The translations under genes were made by a program, and so were the position numbers. From Azolla caroliniana (taxonomy: Eukaryota > Plantae > Polypodiophyta): a stretch of 64,000 bases of DNA. The stretch's first letter is position 1, and the number at the start of each line of letters is the position of its first letter. The stretch spans positions 4,650,001 through 4,714,000 of the forward strand of contig JBHGNT010000021.1 of the NCBI GenBank assembly GCA_043228905.1. The letters run 5' to 3'. This document shows, one piece after another, positions 2,825 through 46,119 of this stretch. The notes beneath the pieces were generated by a model. That model had not been told where the DNA came from, did no database searches, and saw only the letters and a program-made list of their open reading frames with translations.

Positions 2825-3511
2825 TGTCGCGTTGTTACGCGCGTGCGTGGAGAAGGGCGGAACCACGGGGGTCTTGGACTAAGGAGAAGGGGAGAAGGAA
2901 TAGGACTTCGGAATGGAGCTTAGCACAAGAAGAGAAAGAATGAACAAGAGGAAGATGGAGGCCAAATGCTCAACAATATATATTAGAACCGAAAACCGAT
3001 TACAAAATGGCGGCCGCGTAGGCCGCACCAAACGACTATGATAAACCCAAAACCCTAATCCGACGAAGAAGGAAAGAAACCCTAACTAAGGAACCCGAAA
3101 CCCTAAAACGAAATGGTATACCTCACTCACACTCAAAATAAGGCAACCCCCACAATGGTGCTCTTCCTCTCCCTTTATAGCACAAGGAGGGAAGGCCGTT
3201 ACATAAAGGTGCTACAAAATATCCCCCTTTCAATCAATGGGGATATTTCCCTTGATTTTAGGGGAGGTGGGAAGGATGGGTCTTAACTCCCACCTCTACA
3301 CGAACTACTATGTACCTATCTCTCTCTCTCACGTGGATGTGCGCGCAAAAGCACATCACCTTTACACTTTACAAATCCTAAGGTGCATTTCTAGCACCAC
3401 ACTTATCACTATCGACAAATAGAAATACAACATCTTGATGTGCAACGTTGCACATCGCGGGTTTGCTTACTTCGCTCGGTTTTCCGCCTATGGACGAAAA
3501 TCTTCACGACA
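2825..3511 (-). repeat. 3' LTR of element B (687 bp)
   Basis: Direct repeat of 7959-8645; TATA (tttatag on +) at ~3174; three AAACCCTAA telo-boxes. Confidence 0.95.
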
Positions 3512-6500
3512 TCCGCCCCCACCTAACCGCACATCCACCGGTATGTGCCAAAAGGGGAACAAAACGCGAGATTTTCGGCCAAGGCGGCCAACCGAGCCCT
3601 TGACAACCTCGTGGGCTTGCCCGGCTTTGTCTTCCGCTTCGAGCAAGTCCACCCCGTCCACACGAACCACCGTCGCCTTCCGGCCCACCATCTCCACCGA
3701 ATGGTCTCGAACCGTCGGCTCCATCCGATCCGCCACACTTGACAACGTTCGCCGAGTCGTTGCCTCCACCCGATCCGCCACGTCCATCGTGATTCTTTGA
3801 ACCACCGTCTACATCCGGACCGCCGTTTCCGATGCCCGCGCCTTCTTCCCCGATCGGTCCTCCCGAACGCCGTTGCCGACCCGGTTGCTCTTCTTTTGTC
3901 CGCCTCGTATAGCCTCCGGATGCTCTCCCGATCTCTCCGGTTGCACGCCGGATTCCGCCTTTCCCGTGCTTGCCGTGCTCTCTCGCCGTAGAGCATACCA
4001 TCGTTCCCGTGCTCGTTGCTTGGCCCTCATGCGGCCGCATTGCACGTTTCGCATTCCGCTCCTCTTCGCGTACCCTTTCGGAAAGGTACCTTTCTTCCCC
4101 GACCTCCGTTTCGCTCGGAGGAACACCCTCTTGGCCCTCTTGGTCCGCTCGACCGCACACATCCTTCGTGATGTCGTGTTCGTTCTTTTGGGCGCATACA
4201 TCTTCGTTCTCCGCGACCTCCCGTATGCCTCTCTCGGTGCCTTCATCCGTTGTGGCCTTCGTCCCCTCGCCGCCACCGTCCGCCACTCTTGGTCTCACGT
4301 CGGCACTCGCGCCGACCGCCGGAGTCTCTATAGCCGGTGTGGAGGATCCCTCTCGGGCCTTATCTTCGTGGCCGCCGGTCTTAGCCTCTCCGTAGGCCAC
4401 CTCTTCCCACCAATCTTCCCTAGCATCGTGCCAGGTCTTGTCGTCGCCGCCTTCCTCCTCGTATTCGCCTCTCGAAGGCGTGATCCGACCGTCATCTTCG
4501 GTCGCTCGATGTGGCTCCTTCGTAGGCATGCTTGTGTCTTGGCCCTCCATCGGCCGTATTGCATGCATCTCGTCTCGCTCTTCCGCCGTAGATCCGACCT
4601 CCGTGTCGGTCTTCTCCTCCTTTGTCGCCGTAGCCCGTTCCGACGCGGGCTCGCCGTCTTGGACCCACCCGTCCACTATCTCGTACCGGATATCCGTTCC
4701 GGTAACCTCGTACGCTCCGGCCTCCGACTCCTCGCCGCCACCCGCCGTCTCTCCGGTCTTATGTTGATCCGCAACCGCCGTAGTCTCTTGAGTGGGTATG
4801 GAGGGTCTCGTTTGTTTCCGTTTTTCCCCCGAACCATGGTCGTCGTGCCCGGTTAGCCTCCATCTCGCGCTTACCGGCTCCCATCGTAACCGTAACCGCA
4901 ACCGTAACCGGCCAATCGGTCTAGCCGGCTTCCTTCGGTTTGGGCCCGGTTCGCCGGCCCTTACTCTCTTCCTCTTCCGTGCCGTATTCCGGTCGGGTCG
5001 GTTCCCGACTCTCTCCTCGTTTCCGCTCCGGTCCTCTCCGTCGGACCCACCGTATACGCCCATTCCGGGCCCCGCATACTCGTCTTCGTATGCGCTCTCT
5101 CCGGGCCTCACCTTCTCACGGTCACCGCCCATCTCTCCGGTCTCACGTTGGCATTCGAGCGCAACCGCCGAAGTCTCCGGCCCCGGTGTCAAGGGGTCTT
5201 GCCTCCGTCCGCTCCAATCTTCCTTCTCGTTTCCGTTGCCCGCCTTGCCGCCGTCACCTCCCGTCGCACTAAGCCTTATGCCGGCACTCGGTCCGGCCAT
5301 TGGAGCCTCTAGGATTGGTGTGGGTAAGGACCCGGCACCGCCGCTTGTTGTCTCCGTAGCCGCTTTCGTTCGGACGTCGTTGTCCGCGGCTCCCCCATCT
5401 CCGATTCCGTAAGCCTCTAGTATGCTTGCCACCACCTCTTCTTCGCCGTTCTCCGCGTCATTTTGTTTGCCCGCCTTGCCGCCACCACCGCCCGTCGTTC
5501 TAGGTCTCGTGCCGGCACTCGGGCCGACCGCCGAAGCCTCTAGGGCCGGTGTGTGGAAGGTCGCGGCACCACCGCTCGCCTCCTCTCCGCTCGATGTTTT
5601 GGGCCGCCGTGCCCCGAATCTTCCGCCCACTTTCGAAGTGGCGCTCTCCGCTTTGTAGTCACCGGCCTCATCCTTGGCCGTCCATTCGCCGCAAGACGAG
5701 AGGGTTGCTCGCTCCGCACCCTCTCCCATGTCGTCGTCGTTTCGGTTGCCCCCCTTGCCGCCGCCACCGTCCGTCACTCTAGGCCTTTCGCCGGCTCTCG
5801 GGCCGGGTGCCGGAGTCTCTAGGACCGGTGTGTGGAAGGTCGCGACACCACCACTCCTCTCGTCCGTAGCCACCTCCATTCGGACATCGTCGTCCGTGGC
5901 TACCCCGTCTTCGGTTTCGCAAGCATCGAGTATGCTTGCCGCCGCCTCTTCTTCGCCGGTCTCGTCCTCATTTCGGTTGTCCGCCTTGCCGCCGCCACCG
6001 TCCGTAGCTCTAGGTCTCGTGCCGGCACTCGGGCCGACCGCCGAAGCCTCTAGGGCCGGTGTGTGGAAGGTCGCGACACCACCACTCCTCTCGTCCGTAG
6101 CCACCTCCATTCGGACATCGTCGTCCGTGGCTACCCCGTCTTCGGTTTCGCAAGCATCGAGTATGCTTGCCGCCGCCTCTTCTTCGCCGGTCTCGTCCTC
6201 ATTTCGGTTGTCCGCCTTGCCGCCGCCACCGTCCGTAGCTCTAGGTCTCGTGCCGGCACTCGGGCCGACCGCCGAAGCCTCTAGGGCCGGTGTGTGGAAG
6301 GTCGCGACACCGACGCTCGTCTCCTCTTCCTCCTCCATTTCGCAAGCCTCGAGTATGCTCGCGAAATCCTCGTAGAACGTTTCGTGCAACCGCGTCCCGA
6401 AACTTCCGCCCACTCTCGAAGTGGCGTCCATCGCTCCGTAGATATCGGCCTCGTCCATGGCCGTTCTTTTTCCCCGAGATGAGAGGGTCGCTTGCTCCGC

Positions 6501-7916
6501 ACCTTCTCTCATGTCGACGCCGTGGTCGCCCGCCTTGCCACCGCCACCGCCTTTCACCATAGGTCTTACGCGGGCACTCGGGCCGGCCGCCGTGATCTCT
6601 AGGAATGACGCGTGTAAGGTCGCGGGACCGCCGCTCGTCGATGTAATGTCCGTAGCTACCTCCGCTCGGACGTCGTTGTCCGTGGCTACCCCGCCTCCGT
6701 ATATGCAAGCATCGGTTATGCTTGCCGCCGCCTCTTCCGCGGTCTCCTTACCGTTGTCTCGGTTGCCCGCCTTGCCGCCACCACCGTTCTTCTCCCTCGG
6801 TCTCACGCGGGCGCTCGGGCCGGCCGCCGTGGTCTCTTGAACCGGTGCGTGGAAGGTTGCGGTACCGCCGCTTGTCTCCTCCGTACTCGATGATTCGGGC
6901 CACCGTGTCCCGAATCCGCCATGTCCGCTCGAATAGGCGATCGCCGCCTCACCGTCCCCGACCTCGTCCCCGGTCGTTCTTTTCCCCCATGTCGAGAGGG
7001 CGGTTCGCTCCGCACCCTCTCCCGTGGTACCGATGTACCATTCTCTTTCGGCCTCCGCATAGGCCCCGTCCTCCATGTGTGAGGAAGCTCCTTCCTCCGC
7101 GTCCTCCGATCCGCTCGGGCCCGACCCCGCAATAAGCCATTCTTCGGCTTCGATTTTCGCCATTACGAGCCCGCACGCCTCCCGTATTAGCGCTTGTAGG
7201 TCGAGCCCCTCCAAACCGGTTCGCGATGAGCTCTCGTCCGGCGGCATGGCGTAGTCGGTCGTCGCTCTCTCTTCTCCCCCGCTCGCGGGCCGTGTTGTGG
7301 CCGACCGCCTCGCCTCATGTTGCCGACACACCCATTCCACTTCGGGCCACTCCTCGGTGAGACCATGCGCCCCATAATCGTCTTGAAGCTCGAACATGAT
7401 GTCCGTCCTCTCCTCATGATGGACCGTCTCCAAAAATAGGAGGACTTTGTCCGCCCCCACCGATCTTCGTTCCCACTCCGAGAGTTGAGAGAAACGACGC
7501 TCGAACTCTCGGAATGCCTCTATTGCGCTCCGATGGCGCCTCGCCGACGCCACCCACCGATCGAACTCTCGCCGACCTCTTACCTCCGATTCCGCGCACT
7601 CGTATGCCTCCATTAGAGCCCCTTCAAAGGACTCCCACGATTCGTGAGCTTCTTGGAGCTCCTTGACCTCCTCGTACTTTGATGCGGCCGCCGCTCGACG
7701 AAAGAACTCTAGCCTCGTCGCCTCGTCCACGCCCATCCTCGTCATTTCCGCATCGTAGGCTCTCAAAAATTTTGGGACCTCCTTCCCATCGAACCGGCCG
7801 ACTAGACGGACCACCCTTTCGACCGCTTGTTGAGCCGCCTCTCGCCTCGCCCTCTTCCGTCCGGCGTCCATCAAGATCTTTGTCATCATTTCCTCGAAGT
7901 CGAAGCCTTCCTCCAT
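3504..7916 (-). CDS. gag: 1470-aa ORF: gag-like N-terminal ~200 aa followed by a long acidic Gly/Ala/Thr/Glu-rich repetitive region
   Basis: The N-terminus (VGRFDGKEVPKFLRAY...WESFEGAL...FERRFSQL...DKVLLF...GLTEEW) matches gag remnants at 48190-48765 and 54344-54880. The ORF starts just after the PBS and stops inside the 3' LTR. Confidence 0.75.
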   Translation of the reverse strand: MEEGFDFEEMMTKILMDAGRKRARREAAQQAVERVVRLVGRFDGKEVPKFLRAYDAEMTRMGVDEATRLEFFRRAAAASKYEEVKELQEAHESWESFEGALMEAYECAESEVRGRREFDRWVASARRHRSAIEAFREFERRFSQLSEWERRSVGADKVLLFLETVHHEERTDIMFELQDDYGAHGLTEEWPEVEWVCRQHEARRSATTRPASGGEERATTDYAMPPDESSSRTGLEGLDLQALIREACGLVMAKIEAEEWLIAGSGPSGSEDAEEGASSHMEDGAYAEAEREWYIGTTGEGAERTALSTWGKRTTGDEVGDGEAAIAYSSGHGGFGTRWPESSSTEETSGGTATFHAPVQETTAAGPSARVRPREKNGGGGKAGNRDNGKETAEEAAASITDACIYGGGVATDNDVRAEVATDITSTSGGPATLHASFLEITAAGPSARVRPMVKGGGGGKAGDHGVDMREGAEQATLSSRGKRTAMDEADIYGAMDATSRVGGSFGTRLHETFYEDFASILEACEMEEEEETSVGVATFHTPALEASAVGPSAGTRPRATDGGGGKADNRNEDETGEEEAAASILDACETEDGVATDDDVRMEVATDERSGGVATFHTPALEASAVGPSAGTRPRATDGGGGKADNRNEDETGEEEAAASILDACETEDGVATDDDVRMEVATDERSGGVATFHTPVLETPAPGPRAGERPRVTDGGGGKGGNRNDDDMGEGAERATLSSCGEWTAKDEAGDYKAESATSKVGGRFGARRPKTSSGEEASGGAATFHTPALEASAVGPSAGTRPRTTGGGGGKAGKQNDAENGEEEVVASILEAYGIGDGGAADNDVRTKAATETTSGGAGSLPTPILEAPMAGPSAGIRLSATGGDGGKAGNGNEKEDWSGRRQDPLTPGPETSAVALECQRETGEMGGDREKVRPGESAYEDEYAGPGMGVYGGSDGEDRSGNEERVGNRPDRNTARKRKRVRAGEPGPNRRKPARPIGRLRLRLRLRWEPVSARWRLTGHDDHGSGEKRKQTRPSIPTQETTAVADQHKTGETAGGGEESEAGAYEVTGTDIRYEIVDGWVQDGEPASERATATKEEKTDTEVGSTAEERDEMHAIRPMEGQDTSMPTKEPHRATEDDGRITPSRGEYEEEGGDDKTWHDAREDWWEEVAYGEAKTGGHEDKAREGSSTPAIETPAVGASADVRPRVADGGGEGTKATTDEGTERGIREVAENEDVCAQKNEHDITKDVCGRADQEGQEGVPPSETEVGEERYLSERVREEERNAKRAMRPHEGQATSTGTMVCSTAREHGKHGKGGIRRATGEIGRASGGYTRRTKEEQPGRQRRSGGPIGEEGAGIGNGGPDVDGGSKNHDGRGGSGGGNDSANVVKCGGSDGADGSRPFGGDGGPEGDGGSCGRGGLARSGRQSRASPRGCQGLGWPPWPKISRFVPLLAHTGGCAVRWGRMS
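5820..6310 (-). repeat. 231-bp (77-aa) near-perfect tandem duplication within the element B ORF, plus diverged copies between ~4250 and 6870
   Basis: The peptide ATFHTPALEASAVGPSAGTRPRATDGGGGKA... is repeated; + strand ORFs 5832..6053 and 6063..6284 are identical. Confidence 0.9.
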
Positions 7917-7936
7917 CTCTTTCTCCCTTGCCGCCT

Positions 7937-7954
7937 TTCACGTCGGGTTCACCA
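7937..7954 (-). promoter_or_regulatory. Primer-binding site complementary to the 3' end of tRNA-Trp
   Basis: The - strand reads TGGTGAACCCGACGTGAA, 4 nt after the LTR; plant tRNA-Trp ends TTCACGTCGGGTTCACCA. Confidence 0.85.
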
Positions 7955-7958
7955 AAGA

Positions 7959-8645
7959 TGTCGCGTTGTTACGCGCGTGCGTGGAGAAGGGCGGAACCAC
8001 GGGGGTCTTGGACTAAGGAGAAGGGGAGAAGGAATAGGACTTCGGAATGGAGCTTAGCACAAGAAGAGAAAGAATGAACAAGAGGAAGATGGAGGCCAAA
8101 TGCTCAACAATATATATTAGAACCGAAAACCGATTACAAAATGGCGGCCGCGTAGGCCGCACCAAACGACTATGATAAACCCAAAACCCTAATCCGACGA
8201 AGAAGGAAAGAAACCCTAACTAAGGAACCCGAAACCCTAAAACGAAATGGTATACCTCACTCACACTCAAAATAAGGCAACCCCCACAATGGTGCTCTTC
8301 CTCTCCCTTTATAGCACAAGGAGGGAAGGCCGTTACATAAAGGTGCTACAAAATATCCCCCTTTCAATCAATGGGGATATTTCCCTTGATTTTAGGGGAG
8401 GTGGGAAGGATGGGTCTTAACTCCCACCTCTACACGAACTACTATGTACCTATCTCTCTCTCTCACGTGGATGTGCGCGCAAAAGCACATCACCTTTACA
8501 CTTTACAAATCCTAAGGTGCATTTCTAGCACCACACTTATCACTATCGACAAATAGAAATACAACATCTTGATGTGCAACGTTGCACATCGCGGGTTTGC
8601 TTACTTCGCTCGGTTTTCCGCCTATGGACGAAAATCTTCACGACA
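7959..8645 (-). repeat. 5' LTR of element B (687 bp)
   Basis: Direct repeat of 2825-3511; followed by the PBS on the - strand. Confidence 0.95.
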
Positions 8646-10734
8646 ACGTACCACCTCGCGGAACTCTACGGGACATGGTTAGCAGTGCCGGTGGCCGGAA
8701 AGCGGATCAAAGCATTCAAAAAGCGGTTCGAAGACGAGCCGGAGTCTACGAGCCGGAGCGACAACGACGATCAGTTCGGGTCCGACGGAGAATCGGAGAG
8801 CAACGAGTGAGGCCGGGTTTCTTCGATATCTACCCATCTCTGGCGCATACCGGTGGATGCGCGGTTTGGTGGGGGTGGATGTCGTGAAGAAAACTGGCCA
8901 TAGGCGGAATCGGAGAGAAAGCGCATAAACCGGCCCTTACACTGATGGACGCGTGACTTGGTATTTTGTACACGAATCGGTGGAGATAAATACTAAGCCG
9001 CACACATTTAGTAGGGGCGGTGTTACCTCGTACGAGATGTACGGAGAGTCAAGTGTGATGAGTGAGGGTCGAATGTTATCCTGATGTTGTGTATGTGTAG
9101 GGGGTATAAATGTAGTTGTGAGTCTATACGTATGTGAACACATGCACACGTGTGTGCACGTGGATGGATACGAGGAGGTATGAGTGACTGTCCAATATGA
9201 ATGCTCAATGGGGCTTACACCCCTATGTATCTACCCCCTTTTGTACTATTTAACCTCTTATGGGGAATGAATGAAATATGAATAACCATTTCTCTCTCAA
9301 TCTCTCTCTCTCTCTCATCATCTCTCTCTCTCTTCCCTCTCCTTAACGTTGAACCCCCTTGGGAGGGGGGTGGAGCCATTCTAGGCACCACCCCCCACCC
9401 CACAATGCTTCTCAATGCACATGATCTCTCTAACCATCAATCCCATACTCTCCATCATCATCATAACCACCATGTCTATCTTTATCATGATTATCATCGT
9501 CCTTAACCCTGACCCTAAAATCATATAACACCTTTTGGCGACCACTAAGGCGACCCCCCTTTGGAGACGGAGTCCAAGAATGATACGCGGCGATGCAAGA
9601 AAAGTGACAAATGATGGCGATGATGTGCAAGAATTGACAATATGTACAAGTGAGTGAGAAATTGAAGATTGACAATGTATTCATCACAAAACGAGGAATC
9701 GATGAATCGACAAAGAAGTGTTCAACATCCCTAATCCATGTTTAGTTATAAGCAGAGACAAATATATCCTCTGATGTGTGTTAAAGTAGAGACAAATTTG
9801 TCAACAGTTTACAAGTTAAAGCACAAATGTGTCTCCTCATTATCACCATTTCAATCATCATCATCCTCATATCCACCTAGATCATTCTTAACGAAGAGGG
9901 AGAAGATGATGATCATGATGAAGGCGAATATGAACATGAAATGTTGCACGTGGTTCAGGCAATTATGCTTGGTTGACAAAGACAGTGAAGGACGAAGAAA
10001 TAAACCCACAACCAAATAGAGATGTCAATTGAAGGGCCCGAAAGAAAGTAATGGTCGTACGGCCAGAAGGACCGAATAGAGCCGAAGACAAAAACGGTTA
10101 GACACAACCGAACCACGGCCAAAACGGAGGCCGGAAGAATGCCCGGATAGTGATGATTGAATAGAGCGGCCATGCAACTGGAGGCTGGCCGGACAGGGCT
10201 GGTGATGACGAGAAAGGCGTTAGGAATGGTCACCACCAACCGACAACAGCCGGAGCGGAGCGGTCGGAATGGTCGGATAACGGCTGAAGAGCGGCTGGAA
10301 TGGCCGAACAACGGCTAAAGAGTAGCCAGGCAACAGTCAGAACGGTTGGAGTGGCCGGATAGTGGCTGAACAACAGCCGGAGTAGCCGGACAAAGGAAAA
10401 AAACAGTCGGACAAGCGGCCAGACGAGAAGACACGGCGTCAGAGCGACAGCGGCCAGACCAATGGCGGGACAACAGACAATAGTGACAACCAGAACAGCC
10501 ATGAACAACGGCCGAAACAACAACAAAGACACTGCTAAACCATGGAGGTGTCAGAACCAAGGATAAAAGATAGAGTGATGGAAGAAGGATAGAGAAGAAT
10601 GGATGTAGAAGATAGAGAAAGAAAGAGAATGGATACAAGATATGTAATGAGAGCTAAAGACTGGTGTTGATTCGAATTGATTTGAGAATACATGTATGCG
10701 CTTATTTATAGGTTCCTATAGAATAGCTTAGAGA

Positions 10735-10800
10735 TTTCTAGAATGTTCTAGAATGTTCTAGACCTAGAATGCTCTAGGACATTGTAGAACATTCTAGAAT
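10735..10800. promoter_or_regulatory. Heat-shock-element array in U3 of the element D LTR (also 16353-16418)
   Basis: TTCtaGAAtgTTCtaGAAtgTTC (5 alternating nGAAn units) and GAAcaTTCtaGAA, just upstream of TATAAATA (- strand, 10703-10710). Confidence 0.7.
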
Positions 10801-10869
10801 AATCTAGAGTTTTTACAATAATCAATGTAATACAAGAAGTAGCTTTTATTGTTTCATATAACAATAAGC

Positions 10870-10935
10870 TATCTTAATGGTTGAGGTTTTCAAGTATGAA
10901 TTACAAGGTTCGAGGTTCAAGTCCGGGTGACGCCA
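10870..10935 (+). promoter_or_regulatory. tRNA-like Pol III cassette (A box + B box) in the element D LTR (also 16488-16553)
   Basis: A box TATCTTAATGG at 10870 and B box GGTTCAAGTCC at 10914 (44-nt offset, as in tRNA); ends ...GACGCCA. Confidence 0.7.
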
Positions 10936-10941
10936 TAATGG

Positions 10942-13900
10942 TCATGTGTTCATGACACTATCCCTCCTTCGAGAACGCCGAGTGGAAGTCGGCGTTAACA
11001 TTGTTGGGCCGGGCTTGTTTGGATAGTGACGATGGAAGTCGTTGACCAGAGCTTCAACATTACAAACGTTATCGATGGGTTCCCAAGTGCGATCACTCGG
11101 AGGATAACCAAGCCAATCAACTAGATAATAAAGCTTATTGCGCACAATATTAGAATCGAGAATAGCAACTACCTCGTATTCGGGGCCGTCCACAAGTTGT
11201 ACAGAAGGCGGTGGTGGCACGACACGATCAGGAATTAAAGAGGTGTGGCAAGGTTCCAAAAGAGAGCTATGAAAGACAGGGTGAAGCCGCATATGTGCAG
11301 GAAGGTTAAGACGAAATGTTGCATCATTAATCTGCGTCGTGATGACAAAAGGACCTAAGCGTTGATAGTCAAGCTTAGCACACGGTCGGGTAGTCTTGAT
11401 GTGACGACGAAGCAACCATACACGGTCACCAACCTTAAACGGAGACTTAAGACGATTTCGATCGGCATTGGTCTTATGGTGTGCTTGCGCTTTCTGAAGA
11501 TGTGACGATAACTCGAACTGGATTTGTTGTAGTCGGTGGAGGTGATGCGCTGCACTAGGGTTTCGTGACACCTCAGGAAGATCCAGTATACACCATCGAG
11601 GGTGGTTGCCGGTGTAGGCAAAGAAAGGTGTAACTTTGGTAGAAGAGTGGACCGTGTTGTTGTATGCAAACTCGGCAAGATGTAAAATTTTATTCCAATC
11701 ATCTTGTTGATAACTAATGAAACATCGAAGATATTGCTCGAGCGTTTGATTTGTGCGCTCTGTTTGTCCGTCAGTTTGTGGATGATAAGCCGAAGAGAGT
11801 TTGCAAGAGATTTTGAGGCCTGCCCATAGGTGCTTCCAAAAGTGTGAGATAAATTGAGGACCTCGATCGCTAATAATATCATTCGGGAGACCATGATGGC
11901 GAAACACTTCACGCATAATGAGATCTGCAGTTTCTTCACTATTGGTGGTCTTTACACATGGTACAAAATGTGCCATCTTGGTGAACCGATCCACTACTGT
12001 TAAAATAGTATCAAAGCCTTTGGAAGGTGGCAGATCCGTAATGAAATCCATAGAAATAGACTGCCATGGCTTGTTGGGAGGGGGTAATGGTTGTAGTAAG
12101 CCATAAGGGTGATGCCGGGGTATTTTGGCGCGACAGCAGGTGTCACAAGTGCGAACATAATCTTTGACAAATTTTTGCAAGTGAGGCCACCAAAACGAAC
12201 GTTTCACCAGCTCAATGGTCTTGGAAATACCAAAATGTCCAGTCATGGGGGCATCATGACAATGTTCCAACACTTGAAGTCGGGGTGATCCGTCAGGGAC
12301 GTAAAGGAGACTCTTGTAGAAGAGTAAACCATTTTGCCACTTGAAGTCCTGATAATGTTGAGATGACCCTGGCAATGTGGAGCAAGATGGACGACTTGAA
12401 CCACAGTGGGCTAAGACATCCTTAGCAAAATCATCTGAATGAAGTTGTTGCCGAATACTGTCAAGAAGGGTAGAATCAAGTGGTGTGGCATAAATTGTTG
12501 TTACCTGTAGCTTTGATGGCCCGAGGAGAGTTTGCTTTTGATTGTCAAAGGCCGGATCTCCAGGTCGAAGTGCTAGATACGAACGCTGAGACAGAGCATC
12601 TGCTTTCCCTTGTTGTTTTCCGGGCGAAAAATGATCTTGAAATTGAAACGCGTTAGAAATTGGGCCCACCGAGCTTGTCGTCTATTTAATACTCGAGCTG
12701 TTTGAAAATATGTGAGATTTTTGTGATCACTATAAATGATAATCTGATGAGGTGATCCTTCTAGAAAATGACGCCATTGCTCGAATGAGTCGACCACAGC
12801 TAGTAACTCCTTGTCATGCACCTCATAGTTTATCTCCGAAACAGTAAACTTTCTCGAGTGAAACGCGACTGGATGTATCTGCCCGTCCTCGCCTGGTTGC
12901 GATAGGATACTCCCCAATGCAAAGTCTGATGCATCCACCTCAATAGTAAAAGGCTTTTCAGGATCAATATGTGCTAGGATGGGTGCTGATGTGAATGCCT
13001 CTTTCAGCTTTGTAAAAGCCTTGTCCGCTTCGATACTCCAAAAAAATGCTTGATTTTTCTTGGTGAGTTGACTAAGGGGCAACACAATGCTTGAATAATT
13101 ATGTATGAATTTGCAATAGAAGTTCGCAAATCCAAGGAAACACTGGACATCCTGAACTGAGCATGGGGGTTTCCATTCCAATATTGTTTGGACTTTTGCC
13201 GGGTCCATGAAAACACCCTGGGATGAAATAGTGTATCCCAAAAATTCGACTTGTTTGCAATCAAAACTGCATTTCTCAAGTTTGGCGTAAAGACCATACT
13301 TCCTTAGGCGTTCAAGTACTTGCCGCACATGTATATCATGCTCCCCCTGTGTTTTAGAGTAAATCAATAGATCATCTAGGTAGATGATTAGAAAAATATC
13401 CAAGAAATCCCAGAAGATGTCATTTGCCATATGTTGGAATACGACAGGTGCATTTGTGAGCCCGAAAGGCATGATTGTATACTTGAAATGACCATACCGA
13501 GTACGAAATGTTGTTTTCCACTCATCTCCCGGCCGAATTCGAACAAGATTATATGCACCCCTTAGATCAATTTTGGTAAAATGCTTTGCCCCACCAATGC
13601 GTTCTAAGAGATTGGAGATTAAAGGTAAAGCATACCTATTCCTTATGGTGACTTTATTTAAGCCTCGATAGTCCACGACCAAGTGAAGGGAGCCGTCCTT
13701 TTTCTTCACAAAAAAGATAGGAGCACCAGCTGGAGACTTTGAATGTCGAATAAACCCACGTGCAAGATTTTCCTCGATGTATTCTCGAAGACCCTCAAGC
13801 TCAGTGGGTGATAAATTGTAAATCGGACCCCACGGAGGCTCTTTTCCTGGTTGGAGATCAATAGGACAGTCGTACGGCCGATGCTTTGGAAGAACACTAG

Positions 13901-14570
13901 CTTTGACTTTGTCGAAAACATCAGCATAGTCTTGATATTTTTGGGGAATTTGGATGTTCGAATTCCCTTGAGTGACACTAGAAGGTGTCACTGATACTAC
14001 AAATAAGAAAAGGTCCTCCTTGCCTCCCACTTGGTGCAATTGTTGCAATGTGATGGCTGAAATTTGATGAGAAGGATATGGTGCATCGGTAGAACTATAT
14101 ACTTTGGGAGGATAATCCCGAGTTCGATCCTTGACAATGATATTTTCTGCTAAAGGGCACCTAATTTCTCGCTTCCTCCAATCGATTCTAGGGTTATGTA
14201 GCTCGAACCATGGCAAACCGAGGACAATTGGATGCTCAGGACTACGGATTATATTAAAGGAAACTACACATCCTAAATCACCCAAGAGTATGTGTATTGG
14301 CTCAGACTCTTCAAATATCTTCCCGGAAGCTATGGGGCGTCCATCAATCACTACTACGGAAACTGGACAAGGAAGTGTATGCAAGGATATTTGGTGTTTT
14401 TGGGCAAAATCTCTATCCATGAAACAAGAATTGGCTCCAGTATCTAAGAGGGCTTGGACTTGAAGTTGAAAACTGGGTGTCCTAACTTGTACTAGGGCTG
14501 AGAAGACTCTACTAACATGCTTGGAAGAAATGGAACCCACACTAGGTTGTACATATCTAGGGTTGTCCAA
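10942..14570 (-). pseudogene. pol: pol of element D (PR-RT-RH-INT-chromodomain) with one frameshift near 12630
   Basis: ALLDTGA, YLDD, DASD, HHCC, DRG, GPF and EYEVVAILDS...YLVDWLGY...TWEP. Confidence 0.95.
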
Positions 14571-14596
14571 CCAAATGGCTCCTATTTTGGCCGGAC

Positions 14597-15782
14597 TTAT
14601 TCGTTTGACTCCTCTTCTAATTGGCTTAGGACTTCAAATTTATTGGACAAGGGTGGATTATTCATAATATTAGATTCACTAACTACTTCTAAAATGTTGG
14701 ACTCATTTTTATTGTCATAGTGAATTTGATTTACCTGACGTCTCGGCCTACGGGAGCAATGAATGGCTATATGTCTTGGACCTCCACAATATAAGCACAG
14801 ATGGTTTGCTCGACAACGTTGCTTCTCTTTGTCTGACAACGGTCCTCGTCTTTGAGTCATATCGATCTCCATGGGTGTAGGACTATCCATTGGGACTGGA
14901 CTACGTGTTTGCCTTGGAGTTGGAGCAGGGCTATACATTTGCCTTGGGGATGATTGCGCCGTTACTGATGCATAAGTTGGTGTGAATCTAGATCTTGTTA
15001 TTTGTTGTTGTCGCTCACATCGACGCTCAAAGAGGCGATTATCACACAGTATTGCTCGACTAATAGCTTCTGTAAGTGACCTTGGATCCTCGGGGAAGGT
15101 AAGAAGTAAGTCTTTGACATCACTACGAAGGCCTGAACGGAATTGCTCCATTAGGGCTTGTTCATCCCAAGGAATATCGCTTGCGATGAGACGGAAATTG
15201 GCAGCATATGTTGAAGCTGGTTGATCACCTTGACGAAGTGTACAAATCTTGTTGATAGCTGTTCTCGCCCCATCAGTATCTCCGAAACAAGCCTTAAATT
15301 CCTTGATAAATTCCTCGAAATTATTCAATAGAGGAGAATTGGTCTCTAGCAATGGAGCAAACCACGACAACGCTATGCCAGTCAATAAAGTGCCCACTAG
15401 CCTGACTCATGATGCATCTGTTGGATAACGTGCGGGATGCATTTGAATCACCAACCGTACTTGATTCAAAAAACCTCGGAAATGCGCCCTCGACCCATCA
15501 AATTTAGCTAGGAGGCTAATTTTGGGCTCCTTGATAAGTCCCTGACCTTCAACCCTTTGTTGTTGTAACACGACGATTGTCGACTCTAACTGTTGCACTC
15601 GTCGCGTGAACTCCTCTTGTTGTTGCTTCTCTATAGTAACCTTTTGTAGATCCCCAAGTAGACGTTGATTCTCTACTTCACGAGATGCGAACTTGGATTT
15701 AAGGTTCTCCATTTCTGCAACAAGGGTGAGATATTCTTATGAGTTAATTGCAGCCATGGTTTCAGGATGGTTACAAAGGAGG

Positions 15783-15821
<39 letters not shown>

Positions 15822-16080
15822 CCTGACCTTCAACCCTTTGTTGTTGTAAGTCCTTGATAAGTCCCTGACCTTCAACCCTTTGTTGTTGTAACACGACGAT
15901 TGTCGACTCTAACTGTTGCACTCGTCGCGTGAACTCCTCTTGTTGTTGCTTCTCTATAGTAACCTTTTGTAGATCCCCAAGTAGACGTTGATTCTCTACT
16001 TCACGAGATGCGAACTTGAATTTAAGGTTCTCCATTTCTGCAACAAGGGTGAGATATTCTTCTGAGTTAATTGCAGCCAT
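14597..16080 (-). pseudogene. gag: gag of element D; premature TGA at 15407 and 5' part duplicated in tandem
   Basis: EPKI...KFDG, LRQG..A..Y...F, PTPMEID and a CLYCGGPRHIAIHC zinc knuckle. Confidence 0.9.
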
Positions 16081-16105
16081 GGTTTCAGGATGGTTACAAA
16101 GGAGG

Positions 16106-16157
<52 letters not shown>

Positions 16158-18015
16158 GAATCAAACTGTCAGAACCAAGGATAAAAGATAGAGTGATGGA
16201 AGAAGGATAGAGAAGAATGGATGTAGAAGATAGAGAAAGAAAGAGAATGGATACAAGATATGTAATGAGAGCTAAAGACTGGTGTTGATTCGAATTGATT
16301 TGAGAATACGTGTATGCGCTTATTTATAGGTTCCTATAGAATAGCTTAGAGATTTCTAGAATGTTCTAGAATGTTCTAGACCTAGAATGCTCTAGGACAT
16401 TGTAGAACATTCTAGAATAATCTAGAGTTTTTACAATAATCAATGTAATACAAGAAGTAGCTTTTATTGTTTCATATAACAATAAGCTATCTTAATGGTT
16501 GAGGTTTTCAAGTATGAATTACAAGGTTCGAGGTTCAAGTCCGGGTGACGCCATAATGGTCATGTGTTCATGACAAGAGGTGACACACACATGAAGGAAA
16601 TAGGACATAACAGACAAAGAGGAAGATAGAAAGAAGAGAAAGATGAAGTACAAAGCAGAAAATGAGACAGAACAAAAGAAAACAAAAGGAAGAAAAAGAA
16701 CCAAAGAAGGAGGAAGACATGGCGGGAAACGACAAGAAGAGCAGCAGAAACTAAGAAGAAAGAGAGATGGAATCGAAGACAAAAGCAAGGAAGAAGGAAA
16801 AAGAAGAGGAAGAAACCGCAAGAAAATACATTGATGAAGAAGAAGAAACAAAAGATAAACAGAAGACAGGGAAGATGAAGAAGCAAATGAAATAACGTGG
16901 ATAGAAAGGAAAACGAGGGAAAAAGAAAGAAGAATAGAAACGGACAAGAAGAAAGAAAAAGTAAACCTGGTAGCGGGAAAGAAGAAAACGGAGAAGAGGA
17001 AGCAAAGAATGATATCAGAGACAGGAAAAAAAAGAAGAAGAAGAGAGAACCATAGGAATTTCGAAACTACTTTCGAAAAAAAGAAAAACCTAAGGGCATT
17101 GTTGGAATTATAAAAACATGAGGGTACATGATACAATTTTCAAAATCCAAGGGCATTGTCATTGGTTTAGAAAATTTCAGGCTACAATACCTAAATTTAA
17201 AAACTTATCCACCTAAAGAAATGGACGTGCTCGACCATGACAACCCACACAAAAATTAAAGGAAGAACACACATACATACAACATAATTTTGACGACCCG
17301 AATGATTTTACAAAGTTCGTAAGTCGACAGAACGAGAATGTTCGTGTCACGGAAGATTTGCTGACCGAAAAAGATGTTCGAGTCAAGCACTCCGATCGAG
17401 GGAGTCGATCAATGAAAGGACCGATGGAAGTTCCGGTCAAAGAAATACCATCATCAAGGCATGTGGGATCGACGTGCAAGGCACTTTCCCACGGGCGTGC
17501 CATATTGTGTTACCCCGTACGAGATGTACGGAGAGTCAAGTGTGATGAGCGAGGGTCGAATGTTATCCTGATGTTGTGTATGTGTAGGGGGTATAAATGT
17601 AGTTGTGAGTCTATACGTATGTGAACACATGCACACGTGTGTGCATGTGGATGGATACGAGGAGGTATGAGTGACTGTCCAGTATGAAGGCTCAATGGGG
17701 CTTACACCCCTATGTATCTACCCCCTCTTGTACTATTTAACCTCTTATGGGGAGTGAATGAAATATGAATAACCATTTCTCTCTCAATCTCTCTCTCTCT
17801 CATCATCTCTCTCTCTCTTCCCTCTCCTTAACGTTGAACCCCCTTGGGAGGGGGGTGGAGCCATTCTAGGCACCACCCCCCACCCCACAATGCTTCTCAA
17901 TGCACATGATCTCTCTCACCATCAATCCCATACTCTCCATCATCATCATAACCACCATGTCTATCTTTATCATGATTATTATCGTCCTTAACCCTGACCC
18001 TAAAATCATATAACA

Positions 18016-18491
18016 GGATTGTGTGTATCCCTGTCAGAGGGACAGGGAATAAACGGAATAGGACAAGAGAAAAGGGGTATCGCGCGCGAGGGAGGAGGGG
18101 GTGCTGCTGCAGATTTGGGTGCGAAGCCTCTCTCTTCTCCTCCGGCCGTCGTTCTCTGTGGGTGTCGGAAGTTCGCTACCTCTGCTTTGGGGACAGCCTC
18201 TGTGCTTCCAGCAGAGTCTCTCCTTTTCCCCCTTTTGTTTCTGGGAGTCTTGTGACTGTCGTCGGTGTGCGTGAGTAGGGTCCCCGTGTCGGGTCCGTCG
18301 CCGCCTTGTCGGTTGTAACCGTCGGAGTTTGTAATCTGTTGTCATTGTAATTAAGTGTTACGTTCTATATCTCTCCTTCTCGCTTCTACGTGGCTATGAA
18401 TCTCTTTCCCTGTCTCTGTCTCTCTCGCTCCTCGGTCCAAGACCCCTGTGGTCCCGCCCCTTTCTACACGTATGCGCGTAACAACGCGACA
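18016..18491 (+). repeat. Distal part of the element A 3' LTR (proximal part 8880-9020)
   Basis: Joined with 8880-9020 it reproduces the uninterrupted 616-bp copy at 24030-24645. Confidence 0.92.
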
Positions 18492-18495
18492 ACGT

Positions 18496-18889
18496 AAAAT
18501 GGATTACAAAGAGTAGGCTACAAAATGGTGTTGAACCAATTTAGGTTTGGGATGGGTGATAGATCCCTATTTATAAGTAATAGAGAACACTCTAGAATAT
18601 TCTAGGTTATCCTAGAATGTAGAGTAATCTAGAAGATCTATAGAGTATTCTAGAAGGTTCTAGTGGTATAGAACACTCTAGAATATTCTAGGTCACTCTA
18701 GAATGTAGAGTAATATAGAATATTCCTATGATATTAGATTTCATATTCTAGAAACTATACATATAAGAATATTGATACAATGGTTAAGGATTTGACATGT
18801 GTACAACAAGGTCGTTGGTTCAAATCCTTTCGAGTCATAATGTGACTATCAAGATCCTTTCGATGCATGATGTGAGTGTTGTCATGACA
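18496..18889 (-). repeat. Partial chromovirus-type LTR into which element A inserted (second copy 24650-25043)
   Basis: Ends CATGACA like the D and G LTRs; carries the GTTGAACCAATT self-priming motif, TATA, TCTAGA/HSE arrays and an A/B box at 18773/18817. Confidence 0.8.
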
Positions 18890-18894
18890 GACGG

Positions 18895-19544
18895 TGTCTC
18901 GGTTTTCAGCGGGTACGTGTAGGATCTTAGGCGGGACCGTGGGGGTCTTGGACTAGGGAGATGGATAGTGGAGTCCTTAAGCTTTGTAGGCTTCGGTCCG
19001 GAATCGGCTTCCGGCTCCAACGAATGTAGGGTTTAACAAAAGACAGTTCACTGCGAATATGGATCCGACTCAAATATGTTACAAGGGAGATAGATATACA
19101 CGAACATGAATATATATTATAAGAGTCTTACAACAAGACGGTTACATGCCCCGAATCCGGTGGCTATTACATATCAATAGGCTAATACAACAAGTTAAGA
19201 AAGGGAACCGGTGAAGGTGAGTCGAGTGGGCTACCGGGACCGCGACATCCACCATTGGTCACGCCCCGAAGACGGTGGAGTGTTCCCATGCCACTTCGTC
19301 CTCCCTTCTCGAATCGGCTGCCACACGAAACGCTCTCCATCGAGGAGAGGAAACTGAATCACCAAGTGCTACTTCGTCCTCCCTTCTCGAATCGGCCGCC
19401 ACATGAAACGCTCTCCATCGAGGAGAGGAAACTGAATCACCAAGTGCTACTTCGTCCTCCCTTCTCGAATCGGCCACCACACGAAACACTCTCCATCGAG
19501 GAGAGGAAACTGAATCACCAAGTGCTACCACCGGAATGCCTAAA
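18895..19544 (-). repeat. Truncated copy of the Phygy-like solo LTR (complete copy 25049-26019) with a 78-bp x3 tandem expansion at 19291-19527
   Basis: Matches 25049-25521; the unit is single in the second copy. Confidence 0.85.
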
Positions 19545-19701
19545 CCGAATGGTCTAAAACCAAGGAGTGCGTGCTATGGTTCTCGACAAAACTATTGGAT
19601 GGAGGGTAAATACCATAAGAAAGGAAAGGAGAAATGTGAAGAGTAGAGTAGAGTACTGTGTGTGTGTGAGAGAGAGAGAATTGAGACAACTTATATTAAG
19701 G

Positions 19702-19757
19702 AAGGCCTTATTGCAAACTAGTTTTGCTCATACGAGCTCATCAGTGCAATAGGCCTT
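19702..19757 (-). ncRNA. Minimal type I hammerhead ribozyme (core GAAA decayed to AAAA)
   Basis: The - strand reads AGGCCTATTGCA-CTGATGA-GCTC gtat GAGC-AAAA-CTAG-TT-TGCAATAAGGCCT: stem I, core, stem II and palindromic CTAG stem III. Confidence 0.8.
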
Positions 19758-20084
19758 GTTTTTACAAAATAGAGATATATATATAGTGAAGATGGGGTAA
19801 GAGAGGGGGGGGGGGGGGGGGGGGTGATGAGTGCATATAATGAATGTGTGGTAGTCGAAGAGTGAGAGTAATGACATGTAGAGAGAGTGAGAGAGAGAGA
19901 GAGAGAGATTTAAATGTCTATCAAGGGTAGTTAAGGTGTATAAAAGGGTATGTTTTAAGGGGATGTGATGTAAGGTGAGTTGATATAATTGGGGTGATAA
20001 GGAATAATGAGGGTAATAAGGGGAGAGTATGTTAATGTATTCTAAGAGGGTACTAAAGGAGGATAAGGGGATGCTAGGGATAGA

Positions 20085-21935
20085 TTATGGGATAAGTAAG
20101 GGTGGTGAGGTGGGTGGGGATCTAGTAAATTTAGTTTGGACTAAAAGTGAGTGTAGGGTTTTAGATTTAGTCCAACAAACTAGAGGTTTGGGGATACTAC
20201 ATAGTTGGGGATCCTTCATAAAATCACTATATAGGTTAGTTAGAAAAGTTTCAATACCTAGTTTAGGGGTGTTATGGGTATATCTTAGTCTAAAGATGGT
20301 TAGGGTAAGAGAAGCTTTAGTTTTAGGCTTAAAAAGGAGTGATTGTCTAAGAGAATAAGGGTATTTCCTAAAGTTCCTAAGGATGAAATTGGGTGGGTAT
20401 CCTCTTTTGGTAAGCCTACGAAAAAATAAGTTTCTCATATTAGAATAGCCTAAAGGCGTGCTTTCTCTAATGAGGTATCTTTTGAGCTCGTTAGATATGA
20501 AGCTATGCTTTACTTGGAGAGGATGGTTAGATGAAAAAGGAAGGTATTGATAGGTATTAAGGGATTTTTGAAAGCAGTTAAAGGAGAATTTGTCATTAAG
20601 AAGGTTGATCCATATATCTAGAAAGGAAAGCCTAGTCGGAGAGGTTTGTATGGTGAGTCTAATAGAATTATTGGTAGTGTCACCATAGAATTTTAAGAAG
20701 TCTAAAAGTTGAGGTTTGGTGCCTGTCCATACTCCAAAGGCATCGTCTATATACCTAGTGAAGTAGAAGAGGTGGGGGGAAGGATGAGAATTTTCTAAGT
20801 GTGATAGGAAGAGACACGTGTATGCAACAGAGAAGTTGCTACCCATGGCAGTGCCCTTAATCTGTTGGTAGATTTGATTGTCAAACATTAGGAAATGATA
20901 TTCTAAGGTTAGGGCGCTAAGGTTATATATAAGATTAGTCTTATTTATTGAGAAATGAGGGGAGATAATATTCCTAAGGGCTTCGCGTCTTAATTTCGGT
21001 GGGATGCTAGGATAGAGGGACTCAATATCAAAGGTAAAAATGAAACTATTTGGGGGAGGGTTTAGATTTTCTAAGGTTTGGATGAGGGAGTGAGAATCTT
21101 TTAGATATTGCTTTTGAGTTAATAGGATAGGTAGGAGTTGATAGTGTAACCATTTCGATGTTTGTTCAAAGATGGATTTGTTATATGAACATATAGGTCT
21201 AAATCTGAAAGGTGTCTTATGAATTTTAGGGAGAAAGTAGATATTGGCTACTCTATAACCTTGGGGTGGTTTGTGGAGAATGTAGTTGGCTTCTAATATA
21301 GAGAGGGTTCCTAGATTATTTCTAACTATAGTATTTAATCAATCTAAGAGTTCTCCTAACGGAAAGTGGGTCATTAGTTTGTAAGTGGTGGTATTTGAGA
21401 GATGGGTTATAGCTTTAGTATAATATAGGTCTCTATCTAAGACACAAACTCCTATATTTTTATCGGCGAGTAAGATAAGGATTTTAGTATTTCTCTTAAG
21501 GCTATTGAGGGCTAAGACAAGGTGGTATGGGGGTTTAGCATACTTAATTTTAGTGTTTAGTAGTTGTTCTTGTAGGATACTATTGTATTTTTCAATAAGG
21601 GTTTCTAAGGGAAGGTATTTAGATGGAGGGTTCCAGGTGGGGTTAGGTAATTTGAAGGGATTAGGTGGGGTAGTATCACTATTTCTAAAGAAGTGTCTAA
21701 GGTGTAGTGATCTACTAAGGTTGGTATATTCTTTAAGGATGTTTTGAGGGGAGGGTGGGGGGGAAGGGGGGATGTATTTTAGTCCTAAGTTTAATAGTTG
21801 TGTTTCGTTTTTACTAAGTGTGTAAGTGGACAAGTTATGTAGACTAAGGCTAGTACGAGGGGTATAAGCTAAAGGTTTCCAAAATTTAGTCCTAGGTCTA
21901 TTCCTACGGGTTTTCTTAGAGGTAGGGTAAAACAT
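20085..21935 (-). pseudogene. Penelope-like reverse transcriptase (stop at 21339)
   Basis: NLSTYTLSKNETQLLNLGLKYIP, ADKN, LPKIHKTPFRFRPI, TFDIESLYPSIP, GTAMGS, RYIDD, FLD and the C-terminal HP...RGYP thumb. Confidence 0.9.
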
Positions 21936-22071
21936 GAATTTTTATTATTAGTATTCCCCAACCACATAAAAGTGTCAGGGGTTGAGGTTTGTCTATTGAG
22001 AAGGTAGAAGATTCGTTTTATAGGATGTATGGCGTGTCTAAAGTGTCGATTCACACGTTTAGCACGCCGTG

Positions 22072-23825: not shown

Positions 23826-25521
23826 TGGTTAGCGGTGCCGGTGGCCGGAAAGCGGATCAAAGCGTTCAAACAGCGGTTCGAAGACGAGCCGGAGCTTGCG
23901 AGCCGGAGCGACAATGACGATCAGTTCGGGTCCGGCAGAGAATCGGAGAGCAACGAGTGAGGCCGGGTTTCTTCGATATCTACTCGTCTCTGGCGCATAC
24001 CGGTGGATGCGCGGTTTGGTGGGGGTGGATGTCGTGAAGAAAACCGGCCATAGGCGGAATCGGAGAGAAAGCGCATAAACCGGCCCTTACATTGATGGAC
24101 GCATGACTTGGTATTTTGTACACGAATCGGTGGAGATAAATACTAAGCCGCACGCATTTATTAAGGGGGGGATTGTGTGTATCCCTGTTAGAGGGACAGG
24201 GAATAAAGGGAATAGGACAAGAGAAAAGGGATATCGCGCGCGAGGGAGGAGGAGGTGCTGCTGCAGATTTGGGTGCGAAGCCTCTCTCTTCTCCTACGAC
24301 CGTCATTCTCTACAGGTGTCGGGAGTTCGCTACCTCTGCTTCGGGGACAGCCCGTGTGCTTCCAGCACAGTCTCTCCTTTTCCCCCTTTTGTTTTTGGGA
24401 ATCGTGTGACTGTCGTCGGTGTGCGTGAGTAGGGTCCCCATGTCGGGTCCGTCGCCGCCTTGTCGGTTGTAACCGTCGGAGTTTGTAATCTCTTGTCATT
24501 GTCATTAAGTGTTACATTCTATATCTCTCCTTCTCGCTTCTACGTGTCTGTGAATCTCTTTCCCTGTCTCTGTCTCTCTCGCTCCTCGGTCCAAGACCCC
24601 AGTGGTCCCGCCCCTTTCTACACGTACGCGCGTAACAACGCGACAACGTAAAATGGATTACAAAGAGTAGGCTACAAAATGGCGTTGAACCAATTTAGGT
24701 TTGGGATGGGTGATAGATGCCTATTTATAAGTAATAGAGAACACTCTAGAATATTCTAGGTTATCCTAGAATGTAGAGTAATCTAGAAGATCTATAGAGT
24801 ATTCTAGAAGGTTCTAGTGGTTTAGAACACTCTAGAATATTCTAGGTCACTCTAGAATGTAGAGTAATATAGAATATTCCTATGATATTAGATTTCATAT
24901 TCTAGAGACTATACATATAAGAATATTAATACAATGGTTAAGGATTTGACATGTGTACAACAAGGTCGTGGGTTCAAATCCTTTCGAGTCATAATGTGAC
25001 TGTCAAGATCCTTTCGATGCATGATGTGAGTGTTGTCATGACAGACGGTGTCTCGGTTTTCAGCGGGACAGCGGGGGTCTTGGACTAGGGAGGTGGATAG
25101 TGGAGTCCTTAAGCTTTGTAGGTTTCGGTTCGGAATCGGCTTCCAGCTCCAACGAATGTAGGGTTTCACAAAAGACAGTTCACTGCGAATATGGATCCGA
25201 CTCAAATATGTTACAAGGGAGATAGATATACACGAACATGAATATATATTATAAGAGTCTTACAACAAGACGGTTACATGCCCCGAATCCGGTGGCTATT
25301 ACATATCAATAGGCTAATACAACAAGTTAAGAAAGGGAACCGGTGAAGGTGAGTCGAGTGGGCTACTGGGACCGCGACATCCACCATTTTGTCACGCCCC
25401 GGAGACGGTGGAGTGTTCCCATGCCACTTCTTCCTCCCTTCTCGAATCGGCCGCCACACGAAACGCTCTCCATCGAGGAGAGGAAACTGAATCAGCAAGT
25501 GTTGCCACCGGAATGCGTAAA
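23826..25521 (+). repeat. ~1.7-kb direct duplicate of 8676-9020 + 18016-19544 (A 3' end and LTR, chromovirus LTR part, solo LTR part)
   Basis: Same three-element junction series, roughly 95% identical by eye; lacks insertion C. Confidence 0.92.
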
Positions 25522-35442: not shown

Positions 35443-35478
<36 letters not shown>

Positions 35479-35757: not shown

Positions 35758-35764
35758 TGCCATA

Positions 35765-46086: not shown

Positions 46087-46119
<33 letters not shown>

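Follow-up and report, generated by a model that had tools for sequence, protein, structure and literature searches.

A tRNA-type RNA polymerase III (Pol III) promoter, consisting of an A box and a B box at tRNA-gene spacing, is carried in the LTRs of protein-coding Ty3 retrotransposons of two lineages in the genome of Azolla caroliniana; it is a real, genome-wide, lineage-level feature with a putative function. The window, by which we mean the whole stretch of 64,000 nt analyzed here, consists of nested LTR retrotransposons and belongs to an assembly of 523 Mb. A sequence-only reading of it had listed ten A-box/B-box pairs with an A-to-B offset of 43–44 nt and had placed them in U3. All ten pairs were found, all ten lie in U3 upstream of the Pol II TATA, and the claim that protein-coding Ty3 elements from two lineages carry genuine tRNA-type promoter boxes is borne out.

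Cassettes and host elements in the window

Element D (10549–16575, minus strand), a Tcn1-like chromovirus, has two LTRs (10549–10957 and 16167–16575) that are 99.8% alike, and encodes gag, PR, RT, RH, IN, and a chromodomain (a match to PF00385) across three frames. The cassettes lie on the plus strand, antisense to the element, at 10870–10924 in the 3' LTR (A box 10870–10880, B box 10914–10924) and at 16488–16542 in the 5' LTR (A box 16488–16498, B box 16532–16542). Palindromic TCTAGA-rich repeats lie between cassette and TATA in D (10737–10798 and 16355–16416), and such repeats are also seen in C and other Tcn LTRs. Element G, flanked by a 5-bp target duplication, carries plus-strand cassettes at 35703–35757 (A box 35703–35713, B box 35747–35757) in its 3' LTR (35342–35772) and at 46348–46402 (A box 46348–46358, B box 46392–46402) in its 5' LTR (45982–46417). 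LTR I, which begins at 62758 on the plus strand and has an insertion deeper inside, carries a minus-strand cassette at 62773–62827 (A box 62817–62827, B box 62773–62783). It is a G-family LTR (85% identity over 304 nt), and the four families are therefore D, G/I, C, and F.

The C family is represented by 397-nt chromovirus LTR pieces, its internal domain being absent from the window. The piece at 18493–18889 holds a plus-strand cassette at 18773–18827 (A box 18773–18783, B box 18817–18827), and that at 24647–25043 holds a second one at 24927–24981, also on the plus strand, within a duplicated block of 1.35 kb. This block, which contains a junction of an A-like LTR with a C LTR piece, occurs twice (within 17507–19544 and 23826–25521), and its two copies flank frames at 20085–23920 that match RT weakly. 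Between the two C blocks, the element also contains a weak match to the hammerhead HH9 (19695–19758, minus strand, 25.8 bits, E 0.04), under the gathering score.

Element F has antisense U3 cassettes on the plus strand, one in the 3' LTR (28533–29341) at 29223–29276 (A box 29223–29233, B box 29266–29276), and two in the 5' LTR (48787–49696): an outer one at 49578–49631 (A box 49578–49588, B box 49621–49631) and an inner one at 49441–49494 (A box 49441–49451, B box 49484–49494), which is a tandem duplicate. Two further cassettes of F, which the sequence-only reading did not list, lie on the minus strand, sense to the element: that of the 5' LTR at 49106–49160 (A box 49150–49160, B box 49106–49116), about 80 nt downstream of the TATA, and that of the 3' LTR at 28852–28906, with one B-box core change. 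The spacer of the F sense cassette is unlike that of the U3 cassettes, possibly reflecting a separate capture, and a sense cassette downstream of the TATA is also found in some F relatives (L121, L180, L212, and L178).

Measured from the LTR 5' end, the B box starts at 26 nt in G, 44 nt in D, 73 nt in C, and both 76 and 213 nt in F, and at 119–533 nt in other Phygy-like families. The boxes can thus be said only loosely to sit at the same place in the LTRs, as had been claimed. The Pol II TATA lies approximately 155–300 nt from the B box of antisense cassettes and approximately 90 nt from it in the sense family. All ten of the listed pairs are antisense to their elements; antisense is nevertheless not the invariable orientation, with five of 30 Phygy-like matches in sense and F holding both.

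The loci of G and C match the integrase–chromodomain region of D. The 13 nt after the 5' LTR match the element's own LTR at 11 (D) and 10 (G) positions, and the matching LTR segment lies about 35 nt after the TATA; target duplications of 5 bp are borne out in G (5 of 5) and D (4 of 5). Chromodomain, self-priming, and 5-bp target duplication are the described traits of Tcn1 chromoviruses (PMC6317226, PMC2864245), and by these sequence traits D, G, C, and I fit this lineage. F gives no chromodomain match, and its primer site matches the 3' end of the host tRNA-Trp; among its relatives, CG stands at positions -3/-2 in 20 of 26 flanks, and five of eight pairs show exact 4-bp duplications. A tRNA-Trp primer site and a 4-bp NCGN duplication are described for the Phygy non-chromoviruses (Neumann et al. 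2019, PMC6317226), and F and its relatives fit Phygy by these traits. Elements of the Tcn1 and Phygy types in one genome suggest a non-seed land plant (PMC6317226). The parts of the Tcn1 and Phygy descriptions available to us (PMC6317226, PMC2864245) mention no Pol III cassette.

Cassette-bearing elements are 5–8 kb long with gag-pol domains, and stop-free frames of at least 1,000 aa are present in 11 of 60 Tcn loci and in two of seven cassette-bearing Phygy-like loci. Shorter cassette-bearing derivatives of 3 kb exist, which are still well above the size of TRIMs. Element A (2825–8645, minus strand), with two identical 687-nt LTRs (2825–3511 and 7959–8645) and the same tRNA-Trp primer site as F, lacks a scoring cassette (best score 6.9) and is a counter-example; the sequence about 110 nt before its TATA is possibly a worn remnant of a sense cassette. 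A holds a 1,477-aa frame (3504–7937) with no Pfam match, the start of which resembles the gag of Phygy-like relatives. The similar pol-less 3-kb families L174 and L178 carry the cassette, and L174 looks non-coding.

Promoter boxes without a tRNA fold

Sites were scored with a matrix built from 96 ARAGORN-called tRNA genes of the host genome (12 isotypes, some organellar). In the window, 13 sites score at least 20, against a mean of 0.12 and a maximum of one in 50 block-wise dinucleotide shuffles of the window. These sites, with scores of 20.9–27.1 (next best 15.1), are the ten claimed pairs, the two sense cassettes of F, and one site in the pol frame of D (14121). When LTRs were shuffled, none of 500 replicates reached the real score for any of D, G, C, and F. 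Cassettes overall score 21–33, compared with 21.8–34.7 for host tRNA genes.

A functional tRNA or cloverleaf was considered and rejected. ARAGORN calls no tRNA, and Rfam (RF00005) gives no match to one at E<=10. Stem pairing in 32 family representatives is no better than in shuffles (D stem 0.61 vs. 0.62, anticodon stem 0.42 vs. 0.43, T stem 0.43 vs. 0.44), whereas the same stems pair at 0.82–1.00 in 12 host tRNAs; the acceptor-stem positions of the 32 representatives are slightly above shuffles (0.42 vs. 0.35, 3 of 500). Nor is a terminator fixed: among 11 copies in the window, the distance from the A box to the first T4 run varies from 17 to 953 nt, indicating that no defined product is kept, and the D cassette holds a T4 run between its A and B boxes. 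Boxes and spacing are kept, as the sequence-only reading had it, while cloverleaf and terminator are gone. A plant-type CAA start motif at a fixed distance from the cassette was not found. The upstream flanks of the cassettes are 75–88% AT, and the flanks of family representatives have little in common. The host tRNA genes themselves include tandem arrays (Lys, Ile, Arg, and Trp; L031–L039, L048–L050, L196–L201, C8:17.80 Mb, and C16:4.99–5.11 Mb), many with point changes, and 67 tRNA-Trp 3' ends occur genome-wide.

A non-tRNA hairpin, in which the spacer pairs with the B-box arm, is present in the G- and C-type Tcn cassettes. The duplex z is mostly between -2 and -5, re-dealt arms match or beat the pairing of the own arms in only 44 of 5,000 permutations, and the fold z of two G-type representatives is -4.0 and -6.2. 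Changes in the hairpin between G and C types look like paired changes. Long hairpins are exemplified by 46348–46402 and 24927–24981 in the window and by L286, L294, L288, and L097. The hairpin folds equally well on the opposite strand, and it is absent from the D type, from several other Tcn subfamilies, and from the Phygy-like set (mean z -0.17 over 19).

Genome-wide occurrence, descent, and conservation

Two exact patterns taken from window copies match 4,105 and 1,207 times genome-wide, and their reversed controls match nowhere. To place matches in context, the first-listed 30 per pattern (60 of 5,312, from one chromosome) were examined with the cassette masked. All 60 lie in LTRs, 30 Tcn-like and 30 Phygy-like, and none of these first-listed matches is a free SINE copy; sporadic SINE insertion, which had been named as a check, is not what is seen. 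Their orientation is antisense in 54, sense in five (one Phygy-like family), and mis-assigned through an inverted neighbor in one (L079), which would bring the antisense count to 55. Both orientations, tandem copies, and varying distances are tolerated among families, and the cassette is tandemly duplicated in several of them.

Against circularity, a second sample of LTRs was chosen by primer site regardless of cassette. The cassette is present in 51 of 60 self-priming Tcn-like LTRs (25 of 30 in an earlier sample that shares 20 loci), and those misses that were examined are explained by internal deletion, truncation, wear of the copy, or a chance match. It is present in four of 30 tRNA-Trp-primed LTRs, the other 26 being cassette-less, and in none of 30 tRNA-Met-primed LTRs chosen by primer site alone. 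DNA runs labeled as three other organisms likewise cover D-type LTRs, cassette included, with no variant within the boxes among the 40 rows listed of 63. Among four runs that are possibly RNA, seen as contigs that show no strand, ends, or level, one had most cover over the U3 of G and is given no weight here. More distant chromoviruses were sampled as 80 metagenome loci of 36–56% integrase identity, many incomplete, of which 54 extend at least 500 nt past the integrase and 18 have a repeat pair; no cassette was found in their repeats, and six weak matches (scores 18–20) lie outside repeats. None of eight IMG/VR chromovirus loci reaches a score of 18, and no F relatives were found in IMG/VR.

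RT and integrase trees of host-genome sequences only (27 and 22 rows of the 30 elements offered) contain ten Tcn rows, all of them with the cassette. In the Trp-primed elements it occurs in every early branch sampled, although the cassette itself had led to several of these elements; the order of the branches is weakly supported. One Phygy-like clade with support of 100/100 is without the cassette (three rows scored as lacking it, two unknown) and lies nested within a group (support 100/98) that also holds two families with the cassette, one of them in sense; the clade is abundant and has copies with identical LTRs and long open frames. The simplest reading of these sequences would be inheritance within the lineage, with one inversion and one loss in Phygy-like elements.

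Convergent capture family by family, as had been suggested, is not supported, since the cassette was inherited within each lineage and lost in one clade; between lineages the suggestion fares better. Spacers are similar within lineages (z 4.6 and 3.3), whereas the between-lineage z of 1.5 is below the tRNA-to-tRNA background of 2.3, which fits a separate capture in each. The spacer of the F sense cassette has a z of 0.7 against its own lineage. Two or three captures rather than four are likely by this measure, one per lineage and perhaps a third for the F sense cassette. A single origin common to both lineages is not supported by these z values, and there is no LTR homology beyond short low-complexity matches. 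Best tRNA matches scatter over Thr, Ile, Trp, Asn, and Gly (13 isotypes usable), so that the idea of the Phygy cassette as an over-read copy of the tRNA-Trp primer is likewise unsupported. The source would have been a tRNA gene, or a tRNA-derived head, captured early in each lineage, with duplication, inversion, and loss to follow.

The boxes had been expected to be more conserved than their surroundings, which holds across Tcn subfamilies and for the B box of F and does not hold for G-like rows or the A box of F. In representatives of 13 Tcn subfamilies (drawn from the 32 primer-site loci, out of 50, whose end and TATA could be recognized, two internal-deletion rows excluded), pairwise identity is 0.74 in each box against 0.52–0.59 in other U3 (P 0.013 each), with TATA (0.88) and self-primer (0.82) both above the boxes. 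In 28 rows of F the B box reaches 0.96 against 0.84 in the flanks (P 0.002), and the A box is not above its flanks; in 23 G-like rows neither box is more conserved than the flanks. These P values are rough, as alignment columns and related families are not independent. The information-content profile is circular for the boxes and for positions 44–47, its representatives having been chosen by pattern or score, and was therefore set aside as conservation evidence. Both boxes and the 31–34 nt spacer persist in families with RT only about 55–68% identical; the B-box core differs in four of the 13 Tcn representatives, and one Tcn subfamily has a change at the invariant position 54 in all three copies seen.

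Within families, variants found in both LTRs versus one LTR of 27 G-like pairs number 1 versus 9 in the B box, 7 versus 8 in the A box, and 53 versus 94 in other U3; the inherited-versus-private test is not significant (P 0.17 and 0.42), with the B box in the expected direction. G-like LTR pairs are identical in seven of 40 cases. Of 2,341 genomic copies of the G family, 346 (14.8%) show decay of the B-box CG, compared with about 11.8% at internal CG sites; as this is no lower, resident copies are not shielded. The excess of decay at C56 over G57 (234 vs. 112) was considered as a footprint of Pol III transcription, and the same direction is seen in the rest of the LTR (24 vs. 13 and 8 vs. 4). 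CG decay in the G-family LTRs L433–L492 is biased to one strand across the LTR (43 vs. 24) and not internally (380 vs. 357). With the bias LTR-wide, that at C56/G57 is not cassette-specific.

Possible function and comparison with known systems

The reading we prefer, although we give it slightly less than an even chance, is that an inherited tRNA-gene promoter in U3 acts at the level of DNA as a TFIIIC/TFIIIB platform upstream of the Pol II TATA, in the manner of a tRNA-gene barrier. Boxes and spacing are kept while fold, terminator, and fixed orientation are lost, a pattern to be expected if selection acts on a stretch of DNA that binds protein. Boxes A and B are recognized by TFIIIC, upon which TFIIIB is placed upstream (PMC5911963), and the tDNA barrier of S. 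pombe depends on TFIIIC and Pol III as well as on A box and TATA, whichever way it is oriented (PMC2040200); these needs match the keeping of both boxes here and, with the selection-like pattern, lead us to prefer the platform. The cassette, comprising A box, 31–34 nt spacer, B box, and AT-rich upstream flank, would work as DNA rather than RNA, binding TFIIIC and placing TFIIIB and Pol III. On antisense cassettes TFIIIB would load on the TATA side, in the AT-rich stretch, giving a head-to-head arrangement of Pol III and Pol II, and each new insertion would gain a barrier or a patch of open chromatin between its flank and its own promoter. The benefit would be to transposition and confined to young copies, and some lineages would do without it; the cassette is an accessory, not a requirement. 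We infer every step from TFIIIC binding onward, including the barrier effect and the benefit to transposition. In plants, small RNA and DNA methylation silence retrotransposons largely by acting on the element itself rather than by spreading from the flank. A barrier would not stop silencing aimed at the element itself, which counts against the platform, as does the well-supported cassette-less clade with its identical LTRs and long frames. The 26 of 30 Trp-primed LTRs without the cassette, the changes in the B-box core, the unshielded CG of resident copies, and the non-significant within-family test also weigh against it.

The cassette could instead be a source of Pol III transcripts that tune the element's own silencing or replication, which we consider unlikely. 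These would be short hairpin RNAs or antisense RNAs across the end of the LTR, those from the 3' LTR running into the polypurine tract and integrase. The antisense orientation in 54 of 60 scored matches and the pairing of spacer and B-box arm in G- and C-type cassettes speak for transcripts, and the simian foamy virus offers a precedent in LTR Pol III miRNA genes that need an A box, a B box, and a terminator (PMC3993851). Here, however, the terminator is not conserved and D has a T4 run between its boxes, the hairpin is missing from the D type, several Tcn subfamilies, and the Phygy-like elements and folds on the opposite strand as well, one family carries the cassette in sense, and the strand bias of CG decay is LTR-wide rather than cassette-specific. 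The cassette might also be a passenger, an old tRNA or SINE-head insertion that is copied with U3, decays like the rest of the LTR, and is lost without cost. Its loss from an abundant, recently active Phygy-like clade, the non-significant within-family tests, the neutral-looking decay in resident copies, and the subfamily with a fixed B-box core change all agree with this. It is nevertheless distinctly unlikely, given that boxes and a 31–34 nt spacer survive RT divergence to about 55–68% while stems are at shuffle level, that the boxes exceed other U3 across subfamilies chosen regardless of cassette and in F, and that the cassette has been tandemly duplicated in several families.

Inhibition of nearby Pol II reporters by tDNA position effects in budding yeast, which is 2- to 60-fold (PMC2040200), raises the prospect of a brake, a bound Pol III complex that dampens the neighboring Pol II promoter and whose loss frees the element. 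Trp-primed LTRs without the cassette do outnumber those with it, 26 to 4, yet cassette-bearing Tcn families are very abundant too, including young copies (seven of 40 G-like pairs identical), and copy number is a poor gauge of promoter strength; we regard a brake as quite improbable. A landing pad that draws Pol III-targeting retroelements, as tRNA genes are targeted by Ty3, which inserts 1–4 bp upstream of tRNA start sites (PMC5911963), is very improbable and is not supported by junctions. In cassette-less Tcn 5' LTRs, three of eight mapped breaks lie 2–10 nt upstream of the A box, as noted post hoc, but among 156 intact cassettes of G, D, and C, a single one has a break in the 20 nt upstream, caused by a terminal-inverted-repeat element, and the other two breaks have no LTR end and no cassette piece within 10–20 kb; a landing pad would also leave selection on the boxes unexplained. 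The three breaks near the A box are those of L476, L352/L466, and L297, one of them a terminal-inverted-repeat element of about 18 kb with nested inserts.

Among known systems, Helenus and TRIMp3 are alike in having a tRNA-like segment with boxes A and B in both LTRs (PMC10886601). Helenus elements are non-coding TRIMs of 311–1,263 bp, proposed to be driven by their own Pol III promoter (PMC10886601), whereas the elements here are coding, 5–8 kb long with gag-pol, carry the cassette mostly in antisense (54/60), and conserve the Pol II TATA and self-primer; membership in this group therefore fails. The sequence-only reading had named Ajax as tRNA-like, which was wrong, Ajax being a 5S TRIM and Helenus the tRNA-like one (PMC10886601). 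Cassandra TRIMs likewise have a small-RNA-gene promoter in plant LTRs; theirs is derived from 5S, in sense, and in non-autonomous elements whose Pol III transcript is the genomic RNA (PMC10886601, PMC12786077). The foamy virus shares A/B-box units in the LTR of a protein-coding retroelement, but it has a terminator at the stem-loop base and demonstrated miRNAs (PMC3993851). The cassettes described here have tRNA-gene spacing, no hairpin conserved across lineages, and no fixed terminator; with the hairpin only in G and C types and the first T4 at 17–953 nt, a miRNA gene of the foamy virus type is rejected. The barrier at centromere 1 of S. pombe is an actual tRNA gene that stays at one locus of a fungal genome and was tested by experiment (PMC2040200); the putative barrier here is a fold-less copy on plant mobile elements. 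With a tRNA gene the cassette has in common the A and B boxes at tRNA spacing and not the cloverleaf, and the free copies outside other elements that would mark a tRNA-derived SINE are absent among the 60 first-listed matches.

Kojima (2024; PMC10886601) argued that Pol II is obligatory for autonomous partners, with which common LTR sequence is unlikely, so that such partners would be expected to have no Pol III promoter; in the parts of that paper available to us, "not a few" Repbase LTRs are said to resemble part of a tRNA, and only TRIMs are followed up. Cassandra is the sole Pol III exception named in the available part of a 2025 review (PMC12786077). The literature searched, a scope that left aside Repbase entries, most subscription papers, and the Helenus supplements, gave no account of such a cassette in autonomous plant elements. 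Pol III promoters in LTRs have so far been known from miniature non-coding elements and from foamy virus miRNA genes; here, two protein-coding lineages have long kept tRNA-type boxes while shedding the tRNA fold. That two unrelated Ty3 lineages each captured a tRNA-gene promoter and use it as a portable Pol III barrier, guarding or priming the Pol II promoter at any site of insertion and scattering TFIIIC sites by the thousand over the genome, is conceivable, if on balance doubtful. If bound, the more than 5,000 sites would greatly exceed ordinary tRNA genes in number, with possible effects on the use of TFIIIC and on chromatin borders. The cassette-less clade, the inverted family, and the copies with decayed B boxes provide natural contrasts, with which the question of a barrier is directly testable in the plant.
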